A stretch of DNA of 64,000 nt. Source: Negaprion brevirostris. Taxonomy: Eukaryota. Every line of letters begins with the position of its first letter. Position 1 is the first letter of the stretch. The stretch is from NCBI GenBank assembly GCA_030324005.1, contig JARDVH010000128.1, forward strand, positions 35,685,589 to 35,749,588, in the 5' to 3' direction. This document shows positions 6,251-42,941 of the stretch, piece by piece. The position numbers and the translations under genes are program-made. Under the pieces are notes generated by a model that made no database searches, was not told the origin of the DNA, and saw nothing but the letters and a program-made list of their open reading frames with translations.

Positions 6251-7170
6251 GGTTTAGGGAAGCGGGGATTAGGCTAAAATGAGAGAAGTGCACATTTCAG
6301 TCAGAGGGAGTTACCTATTCAGGACTTGGTGTTGATTCGTAGGGTCTACATCCTTTTGAAAAATAGGTAAAAGCCATCAAGGAAGTTCCACAGGAAAAAT
6401 AATGTACCCAAGCTGACAACATTACTGGGGATGATAAACTACAATGACAGATATCTTAAAAAGATTTCTACCATTTTAGCCCCACTTCATCAACTGTTTA
6501 AAATAAAACACCAAAGATGGAAATGCAGAGAAGAACAGCTTTTGTCAAAGTTAAACAGGCCCTGCAATAATCTACCTTGTTGGTGCATTTTGACGCAAAC
6601 AAAACCTTAATAGTAACCGACATTGCTTCACCATATGGAGTGGGAGCTGTTCTGACCCACCAATGCCTGATGGTACAGAAAGGCCCATTGCCTTCGCTTC
6701 AAGACTTGTCCAACATGGAGAGGAAATACTCCCAAATAGACAAGGAAAGTTTGGCTGTCATTCTTGCAGTCAAAAAGTACCATCAGTATATTCACGGCCA
6801 CATTTATAATAGTCTTGGAACACAGGATAAGCCGATGTCCCCAATTGCTTCTGCAAGGGTGCTGAGATGGGCTGTTTTGTTAGCAGCCTACAGTTTTACG
6901 TTTCACTTTTGTCCCAGAACACAGATATCATATGCAGATGCACTTAACCAGTTGCCTTTGCCACAAACAGTAGAATCTAGCACTGGTTTCTCAAGAGATT
7001 ATACTGGCACTGCATTTGGTAGACACTTTGCCAGTTTCAGCAAAACGCACAAAATTGTGGACAGAAAGATACCCTGTGTTGGCGAAAGTAAAGAAGATGG
7101 TCATGCAATGGCGTCAGTATGAGAAGTCAGACGTGTTAAAACCCTGCCAAAGTAGACTGTCAGAAATAGC
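6251..7170 (+). mobile_element. Degenerate Ty3/Gypsy LTR-retrotransposon pol fragment (RT end / RNase H)
   Basis: LVHFD...IASPYGVGAVLTH...ERKYSQIDKESLAVILAVKKYHQYIHG...ASARVLRWAVLLAAY...ADAL is the Gypsy RNase H signature. Frameshifts and stops present. Confidence 0.88.
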
Positions 7171-7439
7171 CTGTGGAGGTTGTTACTGTGGAGAGGGTGG
7201 GTGGGGTGGTGTGGGGGTGGGGGGGGGGGGGGGGCGGGGGTGGGGAGGAGTGCTTGAGTGCATGCACCAGAGTGATACCTGCTTGTGTTCCTACCTTTGT
7301 ATGATGCTGCTGCTAACTTGCAGTATGTCACTAGAGGCACATACCAGGTCAGTGTTAATTAAACCCAATTCCCTGGTAAGCCAAAAGGCAAAGAAGGTTT
7401 TACTGGTTAGCTCTGCTGCTGGCAAATTTGTATGGATAG

Positions 7440-7700
7440 CATGCAAAACAATACTTTTCACTGTATCTCAGTACGTGACAACAATAAATCAAAACTTCTT
7501 TCTTGCTGCCATCAGACTTTTCAATGGACCCACTTTATATTAATTTGATCTTTTTCTACCTATGACTAACACTATACTCTGCACCTTCCTTTCCTTCTGC
7601 CCTATGTACCTGATGAACGGTATGCTCTGCCTGTACAGTGTGCAAGAAACAATACTTTTCACTATCCCAATGTAAGCAACAATGAATCGAATCAAATAAA
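7440..7700 (+). mobile_element. 3' tail of a Rex1/Babar-like non-LTR element
   Basis: The tail motif gaaacaatacttttcact...acaataaatcaaatc recurs at about 44240-44310 and 57350-57590, and inverted at about 28950-29090 and 55550-55640. Confidence 0.55.
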
Positions 7701-28324: not shown

Positions 28325-28411
28325 AGTCAGTTTATGGCTTTACATCAGAAGCATGAATACCGAATTGCTGAACTGGAATTTCTGATTCAGAGTTTGTCTA
28401 ACAGATCAGAG
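28325..28411 (+). CDS. SUN1: SUN1 exon (SQFMALHQKHEYRIAELEFLIQSLSNRSE)
   Basis: Long polypyrimidine tract plus ctag|, donor |gtgtag. Matches TDFMAFHQEHEVRMSHLEDILGKLREKSE. Confidence 0.92.
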
Positions 28412-29829
28412 GTGTAGTAACATAATATAGTTGGTAATTGTAGAATTTTTAGCTACTTGCTGTTGGAGAGCCTTAAGTGAACAGTGTTGGTGCATTGGAT
28501 TCTTTGAATTTAGAAACTGATATTCTTGTATTTGAGTTAGCCAGCAAAAAAAAACCCTGGATTCTGTGGCAAGGTAACTAGCAAATCCTAAGTTTAAAAT
28601 ATTACTAAATCACACAAGCTACTCTATGGTGGTTCCCGATGTCATTAAAACATCTTTTGTTGCTGTGCAATATGTGCAACTTGTGCAGTATAATTACAGC
28701 TCATTTTCAACCCCAAGTGAGTTAAGTACACTTCTATTCATTTGTTGCAATCCAGGCAACTTGAGGGGTTCGAGCCAGAGCGATTGACCTCAGTAAAGAT
28801 TGACAGTATAGTGCAGAGTGTTGAGGTTCACTTATGCATGAGCCTTGGACAAGGCACAGTATCCATCGAGTCAACTGTCCTGAGGGAAAATGTCAAAATT
28901 GGAGAGCTCATTTTTTTGAGACTGTGATTAATCTTATAAGTTATTGTAGATTTGATTTATTGTCACATGTATCAGTGTACCATGAAAAGTATTGTTTCTT
29001 GTGCGCCATACAGACAAAGCATACCATACATAGAGATGGAAAGGAGACAGTGCAGAATGTAGTGTTACAGTCATAGCTAGTAGAGAAGGTAGGTAGCGCA
29101 ATGAGTGATCCTTTGTCATTTAGGTGAATGAAGTAGTTACTGACTGAAAAATTATGTTGATGGTAGGTCATTGAAATACCAGCTACTGGCATTGCATCAC
29201 ACAATTAGAATTGCATACCACAAATTTGCAGTAAAGGCCTATTTCCCCAGAAGATATGAGAAAACTTGTACGTCATACATTAGATATCCATATCTGTTTT
29301 TTACAGAGGCCAGCATGGAGTCATACCATTGAAGGGAGCTGCGTAAATGCTCATTAAAGGGATTACTTGGTGCACTGCTTGTTAATATAGTGGCAGATCT
29401 TCGATTAGTAGTGGCTTATGACTGTTGTAAAGAAGCTGATTTGTTTACATATGCTGGAGCACTTGAGGAATATTCTGACAGTGGACAAGCTTTTCAAAAC
29501 AGTATTGAGAAATTGAGGGCAGCATGGATATGTTTGTAAACTGGAGGCTAGATGTTTTACTGAGAACTAAGCTGACCTGAAGTATCCAAATGTTTTACTA
29601 AAGTAAATTTCATTTTCATTATTTACGCTGCAGACAGGGACGGTGTTCTTTTGGCTACCATTTAGAGAAAAGTATTATATTACTGAGAGTTAGTACAGTA
29701 TGGGCATCTTCATTCTGAGGGTTAGGTTTATGCAAAAAGAAAACTCAAACAAATGATCACTTCTCAAATGATCACCAGAAATATGCACACCATCATGATC
29801 TTTGCTGTGTGTTGATGCTCATAGAGAAA

Positions 29830-30243
29830 GTATAAGTGTACAAATTTCATATAGAATCACAGGAGGCCATTCGGCCCATCGAGTCTATACTGACCNNNNN
29901 NNNNNNNNNNNNNNNNNNNNNNNNNNNNNNNNNNNNNNNNNNNNNNNNNNNNNNNNNNNNNNNNNNNNNNNNNNNNNNNNNNNNNNNNNNNNNNNTGACA
30001 CTATTCTCCCTGAATCTGGCTTAGGGGTTCCACTCACATACACACAGGGCAGGGTAGGTGTAGGAGGATGCGACGGCGCGGGCTCGTTGGGCCGAAGGGC
30101 CTGTTTCCCGTGCTGGGTTGTTCTTTGTTCTTTGTTGTTCTTTGACGTAGAGAACGTGCAGACTTCACACAGACAGTCTAAATCAGGAATCGAATGTGGA
30201 TCCCTGGCGATGTGAGGTATCAGTGATAACCATTGTGCCACCC
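29830..30243. mobile_element. Composite of HE1-like SINE pieces across a 100-N gap
   Basis: Minus-strand SINE tail (atagaatc...ggccattcggcccatcgagtct) and head (...cattgtgccacc) surround a + strand SINE 3' part. Confidence 0.65.
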
Positions 30244-30709
30244 TATTGAAAAGACATTTATCAAAAAGCTGCTTAACAGCAGGTGTGAAAATTGTGGTTA
30301 ACTATAAATCTATTCAATGCACAATAAAGCTAGTTTAAATCTTGGGTGTTCTGTTACCAGTAACAATGCCACATACAGGGTATAATTATCTGTATAATTT
30401 CCTGCATGTGATGCTTTAACTGTTTGAGCTGTGAGACATTTTAGCTTGCACACCTGTATGCCAGCTAATTGACTTAGAATTGCTGAATTTTTTTGTCTCT
30501 TCTCTTGTGGAGTTCATGAAATTAGCTAAAGGTGATTCTTCAGAGAAATCACTGCAGTGTTGAAAGTTTTACTAAACTTTTAACTTGCACATTTTGTATT
30601 TAAACTAATTTTCTTCTCGCATCTACACAAGTTACTGTTGGAAATGCATTTTATTATTACATAGTTTAAAAAATAATTGGTTTGCAAAGTTAGTAAAATT
30701 GTATATTAA

Positions 30710-31060
30710 ACACAAGTAGGAGCGGGAGTTGGCCATATAGGTTCTTGAGTCTTTCCTGTTGTTCAGTAGGATCATGGCTGATCTGAACTTGGCTGTAGCT
30801 CTGTTTTCTTGCCCCTTCCCCATAATCTTTAAATCCCCTGTATTTCAAGGCTGACTCATCCCAGCCTTGTACATATTCAAAGACTTCAGACTCTGTCGGG
30901 TAGAGAATTCCAAAGATTCATGCGTATGTCAGGAATTTCCTCTTCTCCATCTTAAATTGATACAGTTGGAACTATGCCCCTTAGCCCTTGATTTTCCCCA
31001 AGAGGGGAATCATCTGGTCGGTATCAATCCTGTCAAACTCTCTTCAGAATCTAGCATGCT
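30710..31060 (-). mobile_element. CR1 LINE 3' end fragment
   Basis: aggagcgggagttggccat...gatcatggctgatct...gtagagaattccaaagattca pattern, shared with 44500-44880 and 57780-58100. Confidence 0.65.
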
Positions 31061-31065
31061 TCAAG

Positions 31066-31337
31066 GTGATGCATTTTGGTAGATTGAGCTAGGACAGGAC
31101 TTTTCAGTTAATGGTAGGGTACTGGGGAGAGTTAGAGAACAAAGAGATTTAGGGGTACATGTTCATAGCTCCTTGAAAGTGGATAGACAGAGTGGTGAAG
31201 AAGGCATTTGGCATGCTTGGTTTCATCAGTCAGAACATTGAATACAGGAGTTGGGACGGCTTGTTGAAGTTGTACAAGACGTTGGTAAGGCCACACTTAG
31301 AATACTGTGTGCAATTCTGGTCACCCTATTATAGAAA
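31066..31337 (+). mobile_element. CR1 LINE ORF2 fragment truncated by an N gap
   Basis: VKKAFGMLGFISQNIEYRSWDGLLKLYKTLVRPHLEYCVQFWSPYYR. Confidence 0.9.
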
Positions 31338-32204
31338 NNNNNNNNNNNNNNNNNNNNNNNNNNNNNNNNNNNNNNNNNNNNNNNNNNNNNNNNNNNNNNN
31401 NNNNNNNNNNNNNNNNNNNNNNNNNNNNNNNNNNNNNAAGGAAGGAAGACCTGAAGGCCTGGCTGGAATTGGAACTTTGAATCGTGATTACAGCTGGAGC
31501 TCATAATGTATAAATGCCCACTTGTGTTTGTGTTCTATGAGAAGTCTGGTAGTCCATTGTGAGGAACCAGTTTCTCCCAAAACTCTGGAATAAATGCCAG
31601 AGTTTTGAAATAAAAACCACTGTATTTTAACTCACTAACAGTCTCAGAGGTATTATTTTACCTACAACATGTGCATCCCCAGTTTTCATGGCTCCAAGAA
31701 TGGTGGCTGTTGTTGATTGTACACTAAGCAATTTCCTATTGAATATGTACGCTGACATTGTTAGAAAGTGTGAGCTTACGCAAGTGGCATCATTGGTAGC
31801 GTGGGCTTGCGCAGGTTGTTGTTGCCAAGAGGGATCTATTCTTGATGTACCATTTTGTTTTGTATTTCTGCAAATAAGGGTGATGAACTATTGCATCCTT
31901 TTTGTCAAGTTACTGGATCTTTTGGTGACACGGTAAAATTTGAGCCTCAGCTTGATGACACAAAGTTTTGCTTACTAGTTGGAACACTGAGTAGCTAATT
32001 TACACAACATGCAGTGGTTAGCAGTAAAGGTCAAAGACTCTGATCGGTGGTTCTGAGAATATGCTAAAGGTAGACAAGTCAGCAGCACCATGGCTATGTT
32101 TGGGCTATCAGTTTGTGGGGGAGGATGAGGACTAGACTGAGTATGTGGAAAAATTGGAACACTTTTTTTGGTGATTGTACTTGCAGGTAAGACTCAAAAG
32201 TTCA

Positions 32205-32757
32205 TGCATTTACCCTGCTAATGCCCTTGACATTAGGGTCAATTTAGCATGGCTAATCAACCTGACGTGCACATCTTTGGACTGTGGGAGAAAACCGGAG
32301 CACCCGGAGGAAATCCACGACGACGCGGTGAGAATGTGCAAATTCCACACAGACAGTGACCCAGGGCCAGAATTGAACTCAGGTCCTGGCACTGAGAGGA
32401 AGCTGTGCCAACCACTTTGCCACCATGTCGCCCTAAGTATTTACCAGAGTGTTATTAAGAGCAAGATAGTTGACTTACTCGTACAGCCATTCGGCCCATC
32501 GCGTCTGCACTGACCACAATTCCACCCAGATCCTATCCTCATATCCCCACGTATCCCCGGACACCAAGGTCAACTCAGCATGGCTGATCCATCTCGCACA
32601 TCTTTGGACTGTGGGAGAAAATTAGAGCACCTGGAGGAAACCCATGCAGCCACAGGGAGAATGTGCAAAATCCACACAATCAGTGACCTGAGGCTGGAAT
32701 TGAACCTGGGTCCCTGGTGCTGAGAGACAGCAGTGCTAACCACTGTGCCACCATGCC
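32205..32757 (-). mobile_element. Two tandem HE1/V-SINE-like copies
   Basis: Two reverse-complement copies of the SINE core (catctttggactgtgggagaaa...gagcacc.ggaggaaa.cca) and tRNA-like head, at about 32205-32432 and 32478-32757. Confidence 0.85.
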
Positions 32758-32900
32758 ACTATTAACATGAACACTCCAAAGTGCTTTTGTCCTCTGGCTG
32801 GTCTAAGGAATTGAAGCCAGTTATAATTTGAATACTATCAACATAGCTGTGAATTAAACTGACTGATGTGACAACAATGTGATTTGTATTTGTGTCCAAG

Positions 32901-33055
32901 CCTGTTGACAGAGAGGCTCTTATTTACCATTTGGATGGGGCGAACCATGCACAAGAAACTCAAGAACCAAGTGATTTTGAGGAACTACCTGATGAATTCT
33001 TCCAGGTTACCATAGATGATGTTAGAAAGCGTTTTGCTCAACTGAAAAGTGAAAG
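32901..33055 (+). CDS. ASPSCR1: ASPSCR1 (TUG/ASPL) exon embedded in a SUN1 intron (PVDREALIYHLDGANHAQETQEPSDFEELPDEFFQVTIDDVRKRFAQLKSER)
   Basis: tccaag| acceptor and AG|gtaat donor, open frame. Matches ASPSCR1 PVDREPVVCH...ELPDEFFELTVDDVRRRLAQLKSER. Confidence 0.92.
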
Positions 33056-34599
33056 GTAATCTAGGTTTTTTACCTCTGCTTGTCACTGTGTTTAAGAAAA
33101 ACAAGTATACTGATGTTGATATAACCTAATATAATCTCTCATTCAAATTTATAGTTATTGTGATGATCAGTCCTGTACGGAAGCTTTTGCAGTTTACTTA
33201 TTACTCGTCTTTGCCAGGCACCCAGTGGAGACACAACAGTTGAGGTTGATTCCCCGTTTACCTCTTGGGACAATTGCAGCGTTAAAAGCAATCCTGAGTG
33301 AAAGTGTCAACACCTGCCTTAGGTGGCGTTTTTACCGGGAGCCTGTTGTCAGCTGCCAGTAGATCATGCAGACAGTGTCCGTAGCTGGGTTTAGGTCCTG
33401 GTCCAGCATTGTGGTGTCGATATTGCACAATCCTTGCATCCCCCACCCCGCCTTAAAAAAAAGAGATTGGGCAGGTTCCAAGCAACATCGATGAAATTGC
33501 AACGATCACTCAGCATTAACTGCATATCAGGGAATCTCACTAATATCTGAATTCTGCAACAATGTGCAAACATAGCTAAATTAAACAGCAACACAACCAA
33601 TGTAAATATTAGAAGAAAATGTGGGGAGAGGGCTGGAATGTGGAACTGAGCCACGACAGATCAGCCATGATCTTATTGAATGGCGGGGCAGGCTCGAAGG
33701 GCTAGATGGCCTACTCCTCCTATTTCTTATTTTCTTATGTTCTAATGTTCCTAAATGGTTGAATTCTCCTGGAAATTAAGCAGTATCAGAATAAAGTTAG
33801 AGAATAATGGTTAGCACTGGCTAACATTTTTTTTTAAAGAATACTAGTTGGATTTTTACAGCAAATTTTGATAACTTTATTAATTTTTCTTAACAGCAAA
33901 GTCGTTAACTGATTTTATCTTTTTATGTTGGAAATCTGAATAGTAAGAAAAAGATTTGGGAAACAGAAAAATATTCTGATGGAAAAGCAAAATGTTTCAA
34001 AATCTGTTCCCAAAGTGGTTGTGGTCCTTGTTACTGGCCCATTTCACTGAGATGTGGCCGAGATTGGAAAGACACCAATTTTTGCTGTGATAGTTATCTC
34101 AAAATTTCTTGTTCGTATTGCTTTTCTTTGACTAGAGGAATAACACATCTAGAAATACAGAAAGTGCCATTCAGTTCATTCAACTCCCTCCTTATCTACA
34201 TCCCTTTTGGTCTGGGATCGATCACATTTGTTACAATTTCATTGGGTGTTAAATCATATTGATCTGGGACATGGTTTTCATAAAAAATTGAACTTTTCAT
34301 ATTATAGTTTTATTTTCTGTCACCATTAGATAGACACTTGTGGTCATGGATACTAAGCTTGTGTAGTCTCAATTTATATCCCAAGGCATACAACCTGATG
34401 TGTTGTTTGCAGTTATTCAAACTGATAGGAACACAGATTAGGGAGATGATAATGAATAGAACAGAAGAAAATCCCAAACTACTGAAGAAAACCATTTATC
34501 AACTCCAACACCTTGCAAAAGTGAAAGAAGGGTGTGTAGAGAAGAGGATTCGAACCATTAGTCACATCAGAATCTGTTATTCTCTTAGAATTGCAATGT

Positions 34600-34790
34600 A
34601 TATCTTTTTAAAAGACAAAATTGTACCCACCTCTACTACTACCCCTCGCAGCTTGTTCCAGACACTGACCACCCTCTGTGTGAAAAAATTTCCTCCCTGG
34701 ACCCTTTTGTATCTTCCCCTCTCACCTTTTAGTTTTAGACTCCCCTACCTTTGAGAAAAGATATTGACTATCTAACTGATCTATGCCCCA
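34600..34790 (-). mobile_element. CR1 LINE fragment, inverted relative to 35320-35520
   Basis: Reverse complement of part of the CR1 copy at 35151-35657. Confidence 0.8.
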
Positions 34791-35022
34791 AATTATGCCA
34801 AATTATTTGACTCTTGAATTAACAAATGACAATATGGTTTTATTTTGCCAAATGCTGGAACTAATCACTTATGAATGTGAGATAGTGAGAAGATCAAACT
34901 TTGATATAACGCTGCCTGGTTAGATAGCCTTCCTGTGGAATCCTATAGGTGCAAGGAGTCAACGTGACTGGGATGCGAGGTGAGGAACTTGCTAAGTATG
35001 TCTCATTTTTCTGTTTGCTCAG

Positions 35023-35104
35023 GCGACGTCTGGAAGAGGCTCCGTTGATGACAAAATCGATGAGAGACTCTCAATTGAAGGAAAAGACAGAGCGTTATCC
35101 AAAG
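35023..35104 (+). CDS. ASPSCR1: Next ASPSCR1 exon (RRLEEAPLMTKSMRDSQLKEKTERYPK)
   Basis: tttgctcag| acceptor and AAG|gtttg donor. Phase joins the previous exon. Matches ASPSCR1 KRLEEAPLVTKAFREAQIKEKLERYPK. Confidence 0.92.
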
Positions 35105-35150
35105 GTTTGTGAATGATCTGTTTCTTGAAAAATCACACATTAGTAATTAA

Positions 35151-35657
35151 CTGTCATAAAAAGGATATTATTAAACTGAAAAGATTGCAGAAGAGATTTA
35201 CTAGGATGCTACCAGAATTTGATGGTTTGAGTTGTAAGGAGAGGCTGGATAGACTGAGACTTTTTTCTCTGGAGCGTAGAAGGCTGAAGGGTGATCTTAT
35301 AGGGGTCTATAAAATAATGAGGGGCTTAGATCAGCTAGAAATTCAATAGCTTTTCCCAAAGGTAGGGGAGTCTAAAATTAGAGGGCATAGGTTTAAGGTG
35401 AGAGGGGAGAGATACAAAAGTGTCCAGAGGGGCAGTTTTTTCACAGAGGATGGTGAGTGTCTGGAACAAGCTGCTGGCGGTAGTAGTAGAGGCAGGTACA
35501 ATTTTATCTTTTAAAAAGCATTTAACATATGATGGGAATAGAGAGATATGGACCAAATGCAAGCAATTGGGATTAGCTTAGGGGCTTTCAAAAAAAAGCA
35601 AGATGGACAAGTTGGGCCAAAGGGCCTGTTTCCACGCTGTAAACTTCTGACTCTAGC
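35151..35657 (+). mobile_element. CR1 LINE 3' part
   Basis: KKDIIKLKRLQKRFTRMLPEFDGLSCKERLDRLRLFSLERRRLKGDLIGVYKIMRG, then a CR1 3' UTR and tail. Confidence 0.9.
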
Positions 35658-37380
35658 GTTTGAGAAGTGATCTTATTATAATGAGACAACTGCTTCATTG
35701 CAACAATCATTCTCAAGAACCTTCTCTAAGCTGCCTCTATTGTAGAGATATATCTCGTATGAAAAGAGACCAAAATTGTAGACTGTATTCTTGGTATGGT
35801 ATTGGAAACATGTCATACCGAGTAACCTTAGAAACTAATATCGAATTAATGATACAAAGGTGTTTTTGAAAGTTCCTCTGAACTTTATGAACCTGACTTG
35901 TGATCTATAGTGTGGGAGAATGTTCTGATGTAAAAAAAAATGTTTACCCCAATGTCTTTGCTTGTCCCCAGCCCTAGTTTACTTTATGATTTGCTGGAAC
36001 CAATGTTTCTCCACTAAACCTTGGGGTTGGGATGTGAGGGTTATTGAGACAAAGAACCTATTTTAGTTGCTGGTACATATTACACAAAATAAGTACACAT
36101 TTATTTAAAATTTGCATACTTTTTAAAGATTCTTACTCTTACTTTCTTTCTCTCCTGCCTTCCATACCCCAAGCAAATTTGAGTAATTGCCCTGCAAAAT
36201 CCTTTGTATTCCAATAACTCCATTTTGGACAATCTGATGTGCCTGGTGATATCTTATTTGCACAGTAATTGCTGGCTTCCAGTCTTACTTGAAGCTTTGC
36301 TGAACAGGAGTTTTATTGTTATGCATGGTGGAAAGCTTGTGTCTGGCTTGCCATCTGCTGTGACCATGATTTCAGTAACTTGCATCAGGTTTCAATGGCT
36401 AATTATTTAAGCCGGTTGAGCAGGTTACTGATAAGTTATTGATTTGTAACCGTGATTTCCCGCACATCAAAGTACTGAATAGCAGTTTCCAGTCTTTTCA
36501 TGGGCCTTGTGAGCAACAATTAAAATGAGCAGCTGTGTTTCTGTAACTCACCAGGTGGAAAAGATATGTTTGGCCAAGTGTAGTTGTGAAGGTTGTATGT
36601 CACAGCCAGATATGTTCCTGAGGATTTTGGCAACTGACCCTTCCTAACACATTCATAGGAGGGACAGTAGTCAGTGACTGACTGTTACACAGTAGTTTAT
36701 AGCTTGGTGAAAACCAGGGAAAGGTATTTATTTGTGTTTTTTGATCATTAATCATGCCAGAGTTGTGTACATAAAATGCATCTTTATATAAAATTTTGCC
36801 TCATGTGACTTGTATAAAGATGCGTTTTTGTCAAGTTAGCTCAAGGCTGTGCCAGACCTTTTGAAGGCGTCATCAAATTTGTCCCACTTCACTGTTCTTT
36901 ACCCACAGCCCAGCAAGTTCATCCAATTCCCTTTTGAAAGAGCAATTGAACTGCTTCCACTGCTCTTTCAAGCACTGCATTCCTGATCACCATAATACTA
37001 TTGCTGCATTTAAAAAAAACTCATCTCACCTCTTTTGCCGATGAATTTAAATCTGTCATTTTATTACCAGCACTCTCCTCAATGGAAACTGTGTACACTA
37101 TTAAAAACCTTCAGTTTTGAACACTTATTAAATCTCTTCTTGATTTCTGTTCTACAAACAAACTTAACTTCTCCAGTTTAACTATAAAACTGCAGCCCCT
37201 TGTAACAGGTACTAATCTTGAAGTCTATTTAAATTCCTCATCCTTTGAATATTGTGTCTCAATGTAATGAACAAAGTAACCTTTAATTGGAAGGTAAACG
37301 GGAACATGTTGGTGAAGAACACTATTTTTGATTGAAAGCTTTTCTTCTCAAGTAATTTTCCTTTATTTCTCAAACTGCAG

Positions 37381-37424
37381 GAAGTTTACAAAGAGGTTGA
37401 AAGTGCCAAGGCCAGCACTCTAAG
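37381..37424 (+). CDS. SUN1: SUN1 exon (EVYKEVESAKASTLS)
   Basis: ctgcag| acceptor and |gtacg donor. Corresponds to AIQKELEQTKQKTIS, phase 0-2. Confidence 0.88.
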
Positions 37425-37507
37425 GTACGATGCACCGTATTCCTCTTATCAGTTGTGCAGTGATTTCTCATTGGATACTATTTCAGATTTGTTTTTTCTT
37501 TCCCAAG

Positions 37508-37649
37508 CAATGACAATGAGGAACAATATCAACACCTCATGTCTGAACTCAAGAGACTGGATATAGAATTGTCCACCGTCAAGTCAGAGCTGTCAAATAT
37601 GCAAGAGCTAAAGGCATCCTGTGCGAAGATAGATGGGATACAAGGAAGT
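37508..37649 (+). CDS. SUN1: SUN1 exon (NDNEEQYQHLMSELKRLDIELSTVKSELSNMQELKASCAKIDGIQGS)
   Basis: Canonical splice sites. Matches LQLELDQLKSELSSW...KTGCETVDAVQ, including the luminal Cys. Confidence 0.92.
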
Positions 37650-37814
37650 GTAAGCATAATTTTTCTGTCTCATTTGTTATATTTGGATTTTTTGCTATTG
37701 TGCTAGAGAACATGGCTGTTCACTGATGGATTCGTAGTGACAATGGCCATTACAATGATCCCAGTAAAATCTGCAAGATTTCTGTACATAAAATTATTTA
37801 TTCTGCTTTTCCAG

Positions 37815-38069
37815 GTCGATAATCGAGTCAGAGAGTTGGTCAACTTGTTGGTTTTTGGAAACAAACAAGAAACTTCACCCAAGTCCTTCAAGGAATGGCT
37901 GTCCTCGCAGTTTGCCAGCCAAACTGAACTCCAGGACCAGTTAAAAAATTTGGAAATGAAAATCCTCAAAAATCTCACTCAACATTGGATTGAAACAAAA
38001 AAACTACCAGATGCACAGGTAGCTGCGTGTGCGGTCACTAATGCTGGGATAAATGGCATTTCAGAGGAG
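37815..38069 (+). CDS. SUN1: SUN1 exon (VDNRVRELVNLLVFG...NAGINGISEE)
   Basis: ttttccag| acceptor and |gtgag donor. Matches VDVQVREMVKLLF...SSQF...AGASGITEA. Confidence 0.94.
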
Positions 38070-38399
38070 GTGAGTTCTGTCCCAGTTGTTACTCTACCTT
38101 CACTTGACCCATTACCTCTTTGGACCTTGCCCTGCTCCTTTAGTTCGTCATTGTGGCATCAGAGTTAACGTAACGCTTCTTATTGTGGTGCCTAGTCTGT
38201 TGGTTAAGGTGCTCCAATGTTCCTCTCTGATTAACACAACAGAACTTGTCTCACTATGTAGAGACTAGACACTTCCCTATTCATTTAGAAACAGAGCTTC
38301 TCTATTTCCTGTTTTCCCTGAGTATCGAGAAGCAATTAAGAAATCTGTGGAAGCAATAGAAGGCTTTGTGTAGGGTTTAACCATCCCTCCACTTCCTCC

Positions 38400-39135
38400 T
38401 GCATGTGCAATCTGTTGCCAATTCTGCCTTATTTCGCTTTAAAACGTTAGCTGTCCTTTTGCCGTCTGCAACCAAATCGCCGTTCCTTTGTTACTTGGAG
38501 GCTTGATTTTTTTTCTCTCGGGTTGTCCTTGCTGGCCTACCCTGCACAAACTAAATCATACAAAATACTCTGACCTTTTGTCTTGGGTGCATATCCCCAT
38601 CACCTCTGACCCTGAGCTGTAGCAGCTCTCCACACATAAACAAATTGAACTTTAGATCCTCATATTCACTTTCAAACTTTATGGATCTTCAGCTGCATAT
38701 GCCTGCAAGAATCCTCCACTTTGACCTACACCTTGATACACACACTGCTCCTCTCTCTGGCCATTCATCGGCCACATTGCCCCATCTTTTGGAATTTCTT
38801 TCAATAACTGTGAATTTTTTGATTTACATTCTTGTTTCCAAATCCTTCTGTAGCTTAGGCTTCCCTATCTTTCATCATCTTGACAACCCTCCAAGATATT
38901 AGTGCTCCTCTAATTCTAGCCTCTTAAGCAACCATGATTTTAATCATTCCACCATTAGCTGCTTTACCTCCAGCTGCCTAGAATTCCCTCCCTAACCCTC
39001 TCTGCTTCTCCATATCTTTCTTTCTTTAAGATTGTCCTGACCAATCTCTTGTCACCTGTCCTAACACCTCCTATGTAACTGGAGTCAGATTTTGCTTATA
39101 CCCCTGTAAAGCACTGTGGGATGTTTTCCTACATT
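38400..39135 (+). mobile_element. Degenerate L2 LINE 3' fragment
   Basis: C-rich L2-type 3' region ending cctgtaaagcactgtgggatgtttt...acatta. A similar tail lies at about 50600-50770. Confidence 0.55.
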
Positions 39136-40027
39136 ACTTCATGTTGTTGGCACCCCATCAAATTTCACTGCAATCAGTGAAGTTTCATGTGCAGGTTTTA
39201 AATTCAGCATTTTGCAAATCTTGTAACCGTAATACACACTACCCAATTTTTGGTAAGTTACTGCCATGTCAGAGATTTTTATGTTGGACACTATTTGAAT
39301 TTAAGATATTAGCATTACGGCTTGTTTGTGTGTAATTACTAACAAAACTGTCTTGAGCTGTCATTGTGTCTTTGTGCCGAAGAAGTTTATTTAAAATTTA
39401 CTTGTGCCATAATACATTATTTAGAAAGTTATAATCATGCCGGTCCATGGTGGTTAAATGCGTGTCATTGTGCACTTGAAATATTTTGACTGCTTCTCGA
39501 GATATTTCCCTCTGACCTTTTCCAAGGGTTGTTAAGTACTAGAGGGGGTGAATGCTTTCGTATCTACAGGTGCTGGACCGCTTATCAGACATCCCAAAAT
39601 CTGGAAGGACCTGAAAACTGGGTCCTGTGCTGTAAACTACAATGGTACAAAACTACAGCATTATGCTGATCTCCTGCTCTTTGAGTGCAGGTTTAACGGC
39701 AGAATCTGGTCTGGTCCATTGTTCCTTCCTTTGCCTATCCCAAATGGGTTCAACTTGGTGGCAATATCAGCCCAATTCTATTCTCTTTTCCACCTTCCAC
39801 CACAGCATCCTACAAACATAAGACCCAAAATCCTCATATCAGTCCACGTCTTGTCTGAGCTTCTTGGATATGGGGTCCAGTGCCTCTAGTTCGATGTACT
39901 TTACTTGTGTCCATCATTAATATGTCTAAGAATGAATATGGTTTCATAACTCTAGAAGTGTGCAGTTTTTCAGCCTTTAAGTTTTTAATTTTTATTTCCT
40001 GTCATGTCTTGCTTACTCGCTGTCCAG

Positions 40028-40112
40028 CAAGTGCGTGTAATCGTGGACAATGCTTTGAAACTGTACAGTGAAGATAAAACTGGAATGGTGGATTTTGCTT
40101 TGGAATCGGGAG
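40028..40112 (+). CDS. SUN1: SUN1 exon (QVRVIVDNALKLYSEDKTGMVDFALESG)
   Basis: Conserved helix before the SUN domain with the DKTGMVDFALESGG motif. Canonical splice sites. Confidence 0.96.
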
Positions 40113-42941
40113 GTAAGTAGCTGCGGCGGGTTTGGGGGAAAAAAAATACAAAAGCATACAAATTCATATGAACAAAAATCTATATTAACATACCTAATAT
40201 TGACCTTGTGTGGGAGCGAGAGCAAGACCTGTGACAAGTCGGGTATAAATGGTTTGACCTGCTTTCATTTTCCATTTTCTGTGCAATGTTTCACTTTGTT
40301 TTGAGTTAAGAGAACTGGTGATTTGTATGTTTCTCCAATGCAAATAAATTTTTAATCAACATTGGAGAAGATAGTGGGTGTTATAGAAATTTGCACTCTT
40401 GATTAAATATATATAGTTTGCTTCCAATAAATCTTGAAGCACTGATCTGGCTGCTCTACCTCTTATCTGTCTTTGCAAGGGACTTTTTATTTGAAGCATG
40501 CAGCAATCTATTTCCTCCCATAGTCCAAAGTTGCATGGGTTAGGTTGATTGGCTGTGCTAAATTGACTCTTTATGTCAAGGGATTAGCAGGGGTAAATAT
40601 GCAGACTTGATGCACTGAATGGCCTCCTTGTGCACTGTAGGGAATCTATTTACTGGATTGTGGTATGCTAGCAAACCTTGTTACATATATTTTCCACATA
40701 ATTACTTATAATTAATTGTTCAGTGTATCTGAATATGCAAATCAAAAAGTCAGATCTATTCTTTGTAACAACATCGTGGTTTCTGGATGCAGAGCTGAGT
40801 TCTGTATCTGATATGCTTATGTCTCTGACCATGTCCTGAACAGCAGGTTTTACAGTTACATTAAGGTATTGGATGAGTTATTTCCATTGAATTGCATGCC
40901 AGAATTTTTGACAGTTGCTTAATAATAGCCCACATTTCTTTCAAAATCCAGTTTTCCAGGTAAGACAAACGACACTTCCCACTAAATTCAGTACTGATTA
41001 TAGTCGTATCCAGAAATTTCTCATTATAGAAATCCATGCAGTTCACATTTTCTGGGCGTGTACACACTTTCCAACAAATAAACTATTAAAACAATGTACA
41101 AAGGCTCAAAGTGGCAGGACCCGTTTGCATGATTGTCACCTACTTAAAGATTAGATCATTTTCTTCTGATTGAAGGAATTAACAGCACAATGAAACAATT
41201 CTGCCCAATAAATGTTTGTCAAGGTATACAATCTTTGAAATTGAAGCCAGTAAATCCATAAATGTTTGACTGACTCCTTGGATAAACCTTGCTGTGCTTC
41301 TGCAGAGATTTAAGTCAGGCAAAAGATTAAACAGCTTGTTGTGGTTTGAGATTTTATATTGATTAGGAACCCTTCTGGAAAAGTGATCTATTAGCAAAAG
41401 AAATTGATGCATCACTTGGATTCCATTCAGTCTCCACAACCATAGAAACTTGCTATGAAACCAAATGATTTGTCATCAGCTGTAACTCAATCAATCTGGT
41501 AATTTGACCTGTGCAGAGGATGGGACACGCGCATTGCGAAAGAGACCAGATTGCATATATAGTGTTCCTTACTCTATTTTAGAGAAGTTCCAATCATAAA
41601 TAGCCACAGCAGCAATACATTTGGAAGGTTGCAGATATTTCCTGCAGTGCCACCTAACATGTCACGCTGCTGCATGACACCTGTGCAGCAGGTGTAACTT
41701 CCTAAGTGTTACATTCAGATCTCTCTTTAAAATTTGAATATTTTGAATAGGGACTCCATGATTCTGAAAAGCTACAAATAAATGAGTTCAACAGGAAGTG
41801 GAAGTAGCTGCAAATACATTTAGCTGAGAACTCGCTGAAATGTCCACTCTGTTGGGGACTGATATATTCGGAAGTGATTGAACTAGTAACTTTATTCGAG
41901 TCAGTAACTTGGCAATCANNNNNNNNNNNNNNNNNNNNNNGGATGCCTGAGCATGTTGTACAATAAATGTGTTTACTATTTTGCTAACTGGCAGTGTGCC
42001 TTAGTCCTGCATGTGGTCAGATTATAGGTGACCTGACTATCATCTGTTCAGAAGATATTAAAATATGATGTCCATTTAAAAATCAAGTTGGAATAGAGCT
42101 TAATCTAAATGGGCAAAAATTGGTAGCATCAGATTGGCTGTGCATTAAATGCAGCACCTTACATTTAATTCCAGTGACTAATAGAACTGAACATAATAGA
42201 TGGATGACCTTGTACCAACCATTTTCAACTGAAGTGAATTTCAATCCCAGTTAATGAACCATAAAAATCCTACTATCCGCTCTTAAAGTACCTGAATAGA
42301 CAAACAAAAAATGTAGGTGTTTATTCAGATCCAGTCACCTGTAACTTAATTGGTCTTCAAAAACAAATAGCCAATAACCCAGGCAAGTAAATTATCTTGA
42401 AGTTCTACAAATTTGTGTCCTGGGCATGAACTAACATTTCATGTCCTTATTTTGATGCTGACTAACTTATAGCATGTTTCCAGTACAAGTCAGGGGCGAT
42501 ATACTTTTATACTTCAGGAAGGCAAGGCATTTTAGGTATTCATTTTTAAAAAGACAAAAGCTGTCCTCTTTGTGACTATGGTGCATTTCCCTCCAACAAC
42601 CTCATTATGGCCTCTAATGTGGTTCATCACATCACATCTCCAACGCCTCTTTATTGTTCAAATCTGAAGGTGTGTGTTGGGTTCCTCCCATTTATCTGAT
42701 CACTACCAGCAATGATTTTCCGTTGCCCTTTTATGCCTTTACATTGCATCCTCCAAGGATCCTTCTCCTAACTGTCCTCTGATGTCTTCACAACATGCTC
42801 AATGTCCTGTTGGCCCAATTGAGATCTTCAATGCTTTTTAGACAAGCAATAGTTAGGGTCAGGTGAACTCAAATCCTTCCCAAAAATCACTTGCACTGTA
42901 GAGTTCTCCATCTCTTACTGCATCTGTCTTTGTATTTTCAG

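Follow-up and report, generated by a model that had tools for sequence, protein, structure and literature searches.

Two ASPSCR1 exons in a SUN1 intron of the Negaprion brevirostris assembly most likely arrived there by assembly error through a common repeat

Introduction

Does SUN1 of Negaprion brevirostris carry a piece of a second gene, or is the piece there in the assembly alone? The window analysed here, the whole stretch of 64,000 nucleotides, contains SUN1 on the + strand, with shark SUN1 proteins aligning to one exon after another between 3325 and 50986, and one of the SUN1 introns harbors two exons of ASPSCR1. Exon shuffling takes place by insertion of a genomic segment or by retroelement-mediated transduction. 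The ASPSCR1 piece mimics exon shuffling because it lies inside another gene, on the strand of this gene and in its frame. Short-read vertebrate assemblies are known to suffer from chimeric contigs and misplaced exons (PMC6211643); the short-read mouse assemblies of that study have ∼15,500 misplaced exons on average by its own measure, which counts exons off the primary chromosome or scaffold of their transcript. The 64-kb window has 24 gaps and is part of a fragmented draft.

Results

The first-pass annotation had described two intact, in-frame ASPSCR1 exons in a phase-0 intron of SUN1, and their coordinates, splice sites and phases all match (Table 1). The host intron (28412-37380, phase 0) is flanked by SUN1 exons that meet at phase 0, and no stop codon arises with exons A and B between them. 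Exon A resembles Mustelus asterias ASPSCR1 with 96% identity and matches the human ASPL/TUG chains 5ifw, 7oat and 5ifs with E values of 4e-9 to 7e-9, and exon B differs from the Mustelus protein at 3 of 28 residues. Over both exons, 5 of 79 residues are changed and the splice sites are intact. The pair keeps its intron of 1967 nt and has no poly(A) after exon B, which bears out its description as a genomic segment and not a retrocopy. A tblastn search of the 64-kb window with full-length ASPSCR1 returned two matches only, exons A and B; the remaining ASPSCR1 exons are thus absent from the window, as had been noted. An in-frame fit by chance would not be rare, at roughly a few to ten per cent, since it needs just a 0-0 exon pair in a same-strand phase-0 intron.

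Table 1. Features at the SUN1 host intron (positions in the window)
Feature	Position	Strand	Details
SUN1 exon before host intron	28325-28411	+	87 nt, phase 0-0; tblastn shark SUN1 aa 560-588; AG/GT
SUN1-intron CR1, 5' part, cut by gap	31064-31337	+	ORF2 C-terminal fragment; 88-90% to 39 other copies
Unsized 100-N gap, left junction	31338-31437		no sequence support
ASPSCR1 genomic block, probably displaced	31438-35335	+	right end somewhere in 35335-35505
LTR-like repeat, last 232 bases	31438-31669	+	39 other copies at 88-95%; full length ∼700 bases
ASPSCR1 exon A	32901-33055	+	155 nt, AG/GT, phase 0-2, open frame; aa 393-444; start of extended UBX region, helical lariat
ASPSCR1 intron	33056-35022	+	1967 nt, GT...AG
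ASPSCR1 exon B	35023-35104	+	82 nt, AG/GT, phase 2-0, open frame; aa 444-471
Chimeric CR1	35151-35656	+	5' part ASPSCR1-intron copy, 3' part SUN1-intron copy
Likely misjoin zone	35335-35505	+	plateau of subfamily switch scan
SUN1 exon after host intron	37381-37424	+	phase 0 start; tblastn aa 594-608 of P0056

Contigs from three public sequencing runs, X2 (a related species), X4 and X7, cover 32733-34633 at ∼97-98% identity. At position 32959 in exon A the window encodes Thr, and these three runs and Mustelus encode Ile (C vs. T); the Thr is a change specific to the source lineage and lies in a variable loop. Within the ASPSCR1 intron, a retrotransposon tail of ∼130 bases (33623-33751), at which contigs of a fourth run, X1, break, is absent from the X2, X4 and X7 contigs and marks a lineage-specific insertion. 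Elsewhere in SUN1, 37424-37507 is an intron of 83 bases that is spliced out in all listed homologues except the white shark model P0068, which reads into it, and the intron at 6571-7540 has two overlapping open frames of 183 and 189 aa that presumably resemble a Ty3/gypsy polymerase remnant.

As in the extended UBX domain of ASPSCR1/TUG/ASPL (5ifw, 5ifs and 7oat; PMC5080433), the exons encode the N-terminal extension and the helical lariat; unlike in that domain, the UBX fold and the p97-docking Pro-Pro touch-turn are absent from the window. In human ASPL, according to the same paper, the lariat wraps the p97 N domain, and disassembly of p97 hexamers requires both the lariat and the UBX fold's Pro-Pro touch-turn. 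At the level of sequence, exon A matches residues 1-47 of 5ifw, the helical lariat, and by our own count on the aligned chains it contains the residue matching human D351. Neither exon has a Pfam match; Pfam UBX is found at aa 468-539 of P0003, and the UBX exons are on scaffold C137. Because the UBX fold and the touch-turn are encoded there, the exon pair alone is not an extended UBX domain. The insertion point corresponds to aa 588/589 of a catshark SUN1, past the hydrophobic stretch near aa 409-432 but short of the SUN domain (aa 791-922). Given the known topology of SUN1, this region is on the luminal side, away from p97, and the topology argument raised earlier against a function of the insert fits this position.

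The exon A piece was found in none of 28 chondrichthyan SUN1 proteins, and the SUN1 junction reads straight through in 25 of these, namely those where a motif search located it. Conversely, a SUN domain is missing from all 52 proteins that a search with exon A retrieved. Both exons are held by 135 of 136 ASPSCR1 proteins, a set that is biased by having been found with the exon region itself, in a search that listed the best 120 of 653 matches; the exception is a 391-residue entry. No shark ASPSCR1 without aa 393-471 occurs among these best 120 of 653 matches, and the matches listed include no protein from a species closer than Mustelus.

We located the native ASPSCR1 gene by comparing full-length Mustelus asterias ASPSCR1 with the whole assembly. 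Two of the 15 matches are in the window and the other 13 lie in order on the minus strand of scaffold C137 (9058665-9268222). This 217-kb locus, for which coverage was determined minus 500 bases of a neighbouring intron, leaves only aa 1-8, 393-471 and 635 uncovered, and aa 393-471 is the sole internal ASPSCR1 stretch without a match on C137. Both the exon ending with aa 392 (9151809) and that starting with aa 472 (9140638) are phase 0; the 11,170 bases that separate them include a sized gap of 5042 Ns (C137:9142573-9147614), the largest of 59 in the locus, the second largest having 2645. The annotation had named as the deciding test whether the true ASPSCR1 locus lacks exactly these two exons; it does, and the 5042-N gap is in their place.

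The displaced block would fill ∼4.2-4.7 kb of this gap, which is the sum of 465 missing repeat bases, 3713 bases of the window (31438-35150) and up to ∼500 bases of CR1. Sized gaps in this assembly are informative about length, as the N count was within ∼30 bases of the missing length in four of five testable cases (those with both edges in one CR1, among 193 gaps examined, 38 of them touching the CR1 family). One edge of the C137 gap is a (CA)n run; the other is the tail of a young CR1. This tail comes from a different family, so the CR1 at 35160 cannot have it as its 3' end. Copies of the young family have Ns within 800 bases upstream in 10 of 19 cases; since such elements cause gaps by themselves, the gap may hold other content and is no proof on its own. 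Direct comparison revealed no overlap between the block ends and the gap edges.

We next consider the two junctions. On the left, the block begins directly after a 100-N gap that separates two cut-off repeats without homology, a CR1 and then a repeat that its ends lead us to read as LTR-like. X1, X4 and X7 contigs pass from unique SUN1-intron DNA into this CR1, and the LTR-like repeat misses ∼465 bases at the gap, as its copies have ∼465 more upstream bases in common. Gaps of 100 Ns are placeholders: at four whose two edges both belong to the CR1 family, the concealed lengths were +313, +414, -450 and -690 bases. At two of these, L144:1346 and L164:935, 450 and 690 CR1-family bases are repeated on both sides of the gap, a sign of false duplication or of adjacent copies at placeholder gaps.

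The right junction lies within gap-free assembled sequence (31438-41918). Because an X2 contig spans 34760-35189, the passage of unique ASPSCR1 intron into CR1 is genuine and any misjoin is further right. The CR1 tail belongs to SUN1, as X1 and X7 contigs begin at 35626. The annotation had treated the CR1 beyond the block as the continuation of the one ending at 31337. Judged by other copies, 25 of 29 of which place the pieces at 31064-31337 and from 35160 onward in register, this looked plausible; the reading as one copy did not hold, and 35151-35656 is a chimera of two copies. The two in-register ends overlap by 12 nt with three differences, hence the right CR1 has its own 5' end near 35151. 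We compared subfamily markers using a three-cluster mixture on 86 genomic CR1 copies (49 sites, 31 non-CpG); the copies are the best matches to the three pieces and not a random sample, and the clusters were fitted on all 86 with membership not refitted for controls. An arrangement with the left piece and the tail from one copy and the middle from another was favored over a single copy with a log10 LR of 3.85 at all sites and 3.32 at non-CpG sites; of the full-span control copies, none of 49 and none of 52, respectively, had values as high. It was also favored over an arrangement pairing the middle with the tail, by 1.47 and 2.34 (controls, 3 of 49 and 0 of 52). The switch is positioned between 35335 and 35505. 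The four-site allele combination that the window has across the break was present in 1 of 31 CR1 copies, and its middle and tail alleles were paired in 3 of 27 and 1 of 18 copies. A single CR1 split by insertion is therefore rejected by the mismatched 12-nt overlap, the four-site combination and the subfamily test; the insertion point also shows no clear target-site duplication and no single interrupted element. Within 35350-35434 there are exact matches of 58 and 56 nt to other CR1 copies. The assembler passed a 53-nt exact match within the left piece without breaking, so exact-match length cannot fix the join. Dating the CR1 pieces by their distance to the family majority (6.2% left, 9.9% right) was discarded because the subfamilies confound it.

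A real cut-and-paste relocation, in which the block moved out of ASPSCR1 into the SUN1 intron and the right junction formed by CR1-CR1 recombination, is in our estimate very improbable. It would account for the single copy, the 3' junction within gap-free sequence and the in-register CR1 ends, and the 100-N gap can hide several hundred bases. ASPSCR1 would then splice aa 392 to 472 and lose the lariat, keeping its frame because the flanking exons on C137 are phase 0-0, and SUN1 would gain an optional luminal cassette of 79 residues. However, the presence of the 5042-N gap in exactly that intron, which makes up 11.2 of the 217 kb, must then be a coincidence, and the left junction offers no homology, just a gap between two cut repeats. 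Few residue changes relative to Mustelus and intact splice sites are what is expected in a working ASPSCR1, and the lariat, needed for p97 hexamer disassembly according to PMC5080433, is kept in nearly all homologues (135 of 136). The subfamily test, as described, rejects one interrupted CR1. A weaker point is the depth of the block in X4, about half that of the SUN1 side, which is unexpected for neighbours on one molecule. There is likewise very little chance that such a relocation is common to related sharks, with an in-frame ASPSCR1 unable to take p97 hexamers apart.

We also asked how many copies of the block exist. Exon A and the unique DNA before the CR1 each have a single match in the assembly, and the exon pair is the only copy. 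The search for a second complete copy of the ASPSCR1 exons, which had been suggested to separate duplication from misplacement, found none in the assembly and so fits misplacement. In each of the four public runs (X1, X2, X4 and X7), exon A is covered by one contig; a further contig with variants was not seen, nor was the depth elevated. Contigs of X1, which may be the source sample, match the block over 916 and 922 bases with 0 differences. Depth was 8.7 on the block and 5.6-8.5 on SUN1-side contigs in X1, 10.3-12.3 and 10.6-12 in X7, and 7.9-8.5 and 12.4-18.2 in X4. Contig depth reflects copy number poorly, and contigs drop variants; the contig data are therefore weak evidence, although none of them suggests a second copy. 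In all four runs the contigs stop at repeats, and none bridges a junction or ties the block to C137.

These data bear on a real duplication, in which the block was copied into SUN1, the donor was kept in ASPSCR1 and the assembler collapsed the two, leaving a gap at the donor site. A single event of this kind would cover the intactness of the exons, their place in SUN1 and the 5042-N gap. Yet identical copies should about double the depth, and X1, X7 and X4 show no such rise, while diverged copies should give a second or mosaic contig, and a single contig per run was found over exon A; the X1 contigs are free of differences and neither exon has a second match in the assembly. We regard duplication as highly unlikely.

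The half depth of the X4 contigs on the block (32734-35190) was not seen in X1 or X7; strong heterozygosity at the locus, hemizygosity or the filtering out of a second contig are candidate causes. X-linkage of the block is not supported as a cause, as the grey reef shark X is given as 17.3 Mb in PMC12498223 and C137 has a length of 50.2 Mb. The sex-chromosome fusions in the accessible portion of 10.1101/2025.02.26.637739 concern rays, and the term 'fusion' is absent from that of 10.64898/2026.03.13.711537.

Discussion

Overall, we conclude with high confidence that the two exons reached the SUN1 intron by assembly error through a common repeat and that there is no new fusion gene. Assembly error is the most likely explanation because the exons are absent from the ASPSCR1 locus and a 5-kb gap lies in their place. 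The annotation had already considered misassembly likelier than exon capture, and a native locus without these exons and the failure to find a second copy agree with it. Sense-strand CR1 copies of one family would be located both in the SUN1 intron and in the intron that follows exon B of ASPSCR1, and the assembler probably crossed from the CR1 of ASPSCR1 to that of SUN1 at ∼35335-35505. This crossing would have joined ∼4 kb of ASPSCR1 to the half of SUN1 that lies downstream; the other half, stranded upstream, would have been scaffolded in front with a placeholder gap of 100 Ns, and the ASPSCR1 locus left with a sized hole.

Some observations speak against an assembly error. No contig bridges either junction or links the block to C137, and the edges of the C137 gap and the ends of the block have no sequence in common. 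Real non-allelic recombination also gives a chimeric CR1. Finally, the left CR1 piece ends at most 12 nt from where the right one begins, and we see no way to derive this near coincidence of two CR1 ends from how the assembler works.

Like the misplaced exons in PMC6211643, those in the window are off their scaffold as expected from an assembler joining non-adjacent regions. Unlike the cases there, the piece is embedded in a different gene, with which it agrees in strand and frame, and the join is narrowed to ∼170 bases by CR1 subfamily markers. Comparison with exon shuffling gives a likeness in the symmetric 0-0 exon block, bounded by repeats, in a phase-0 intron; in contrast to exon shuffling, there is no donor copy, the intron is kept (no RNA intermediate), poly(A) is missing and one junction is a gap. 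Retrotransposon 3' transduction or retrocopying, with introns removed and poly(A) behind the transduced part, does not describe the block. No SUN1-ASPSCR1 fusion was found in the literature naming both genes, as judged by titles and the beginnings of abstracts; by title, this literature consists of expression or methylation data. The SUN1-ASPSCR1 arrangement is most likely an artefact and not a real feature.

If relocation were true after all, the locus would be a rare example among vertebrates of exons shuffled through relocation, and it would offer a natural experiment on the role of the lariat in an animal. With assembly error as the preferred explanation, the finding matters to users of the assembly. 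The false products that gene prediction may yield are a SUN1-ASPSCR1 fusion and, as the flanking exons on C137 are both phase 0, an in-frame ASPSCR1 minus 79 residues that lacks the p97-disassembling lariat. With every junction at phase 0, such false gene models look plausible. Misjoins of this kind can be spotted without raw reads by assigning the joining repeat to subfamilies through marker sites. In the animal, both genes would be ordinary, with no chimeric protein.
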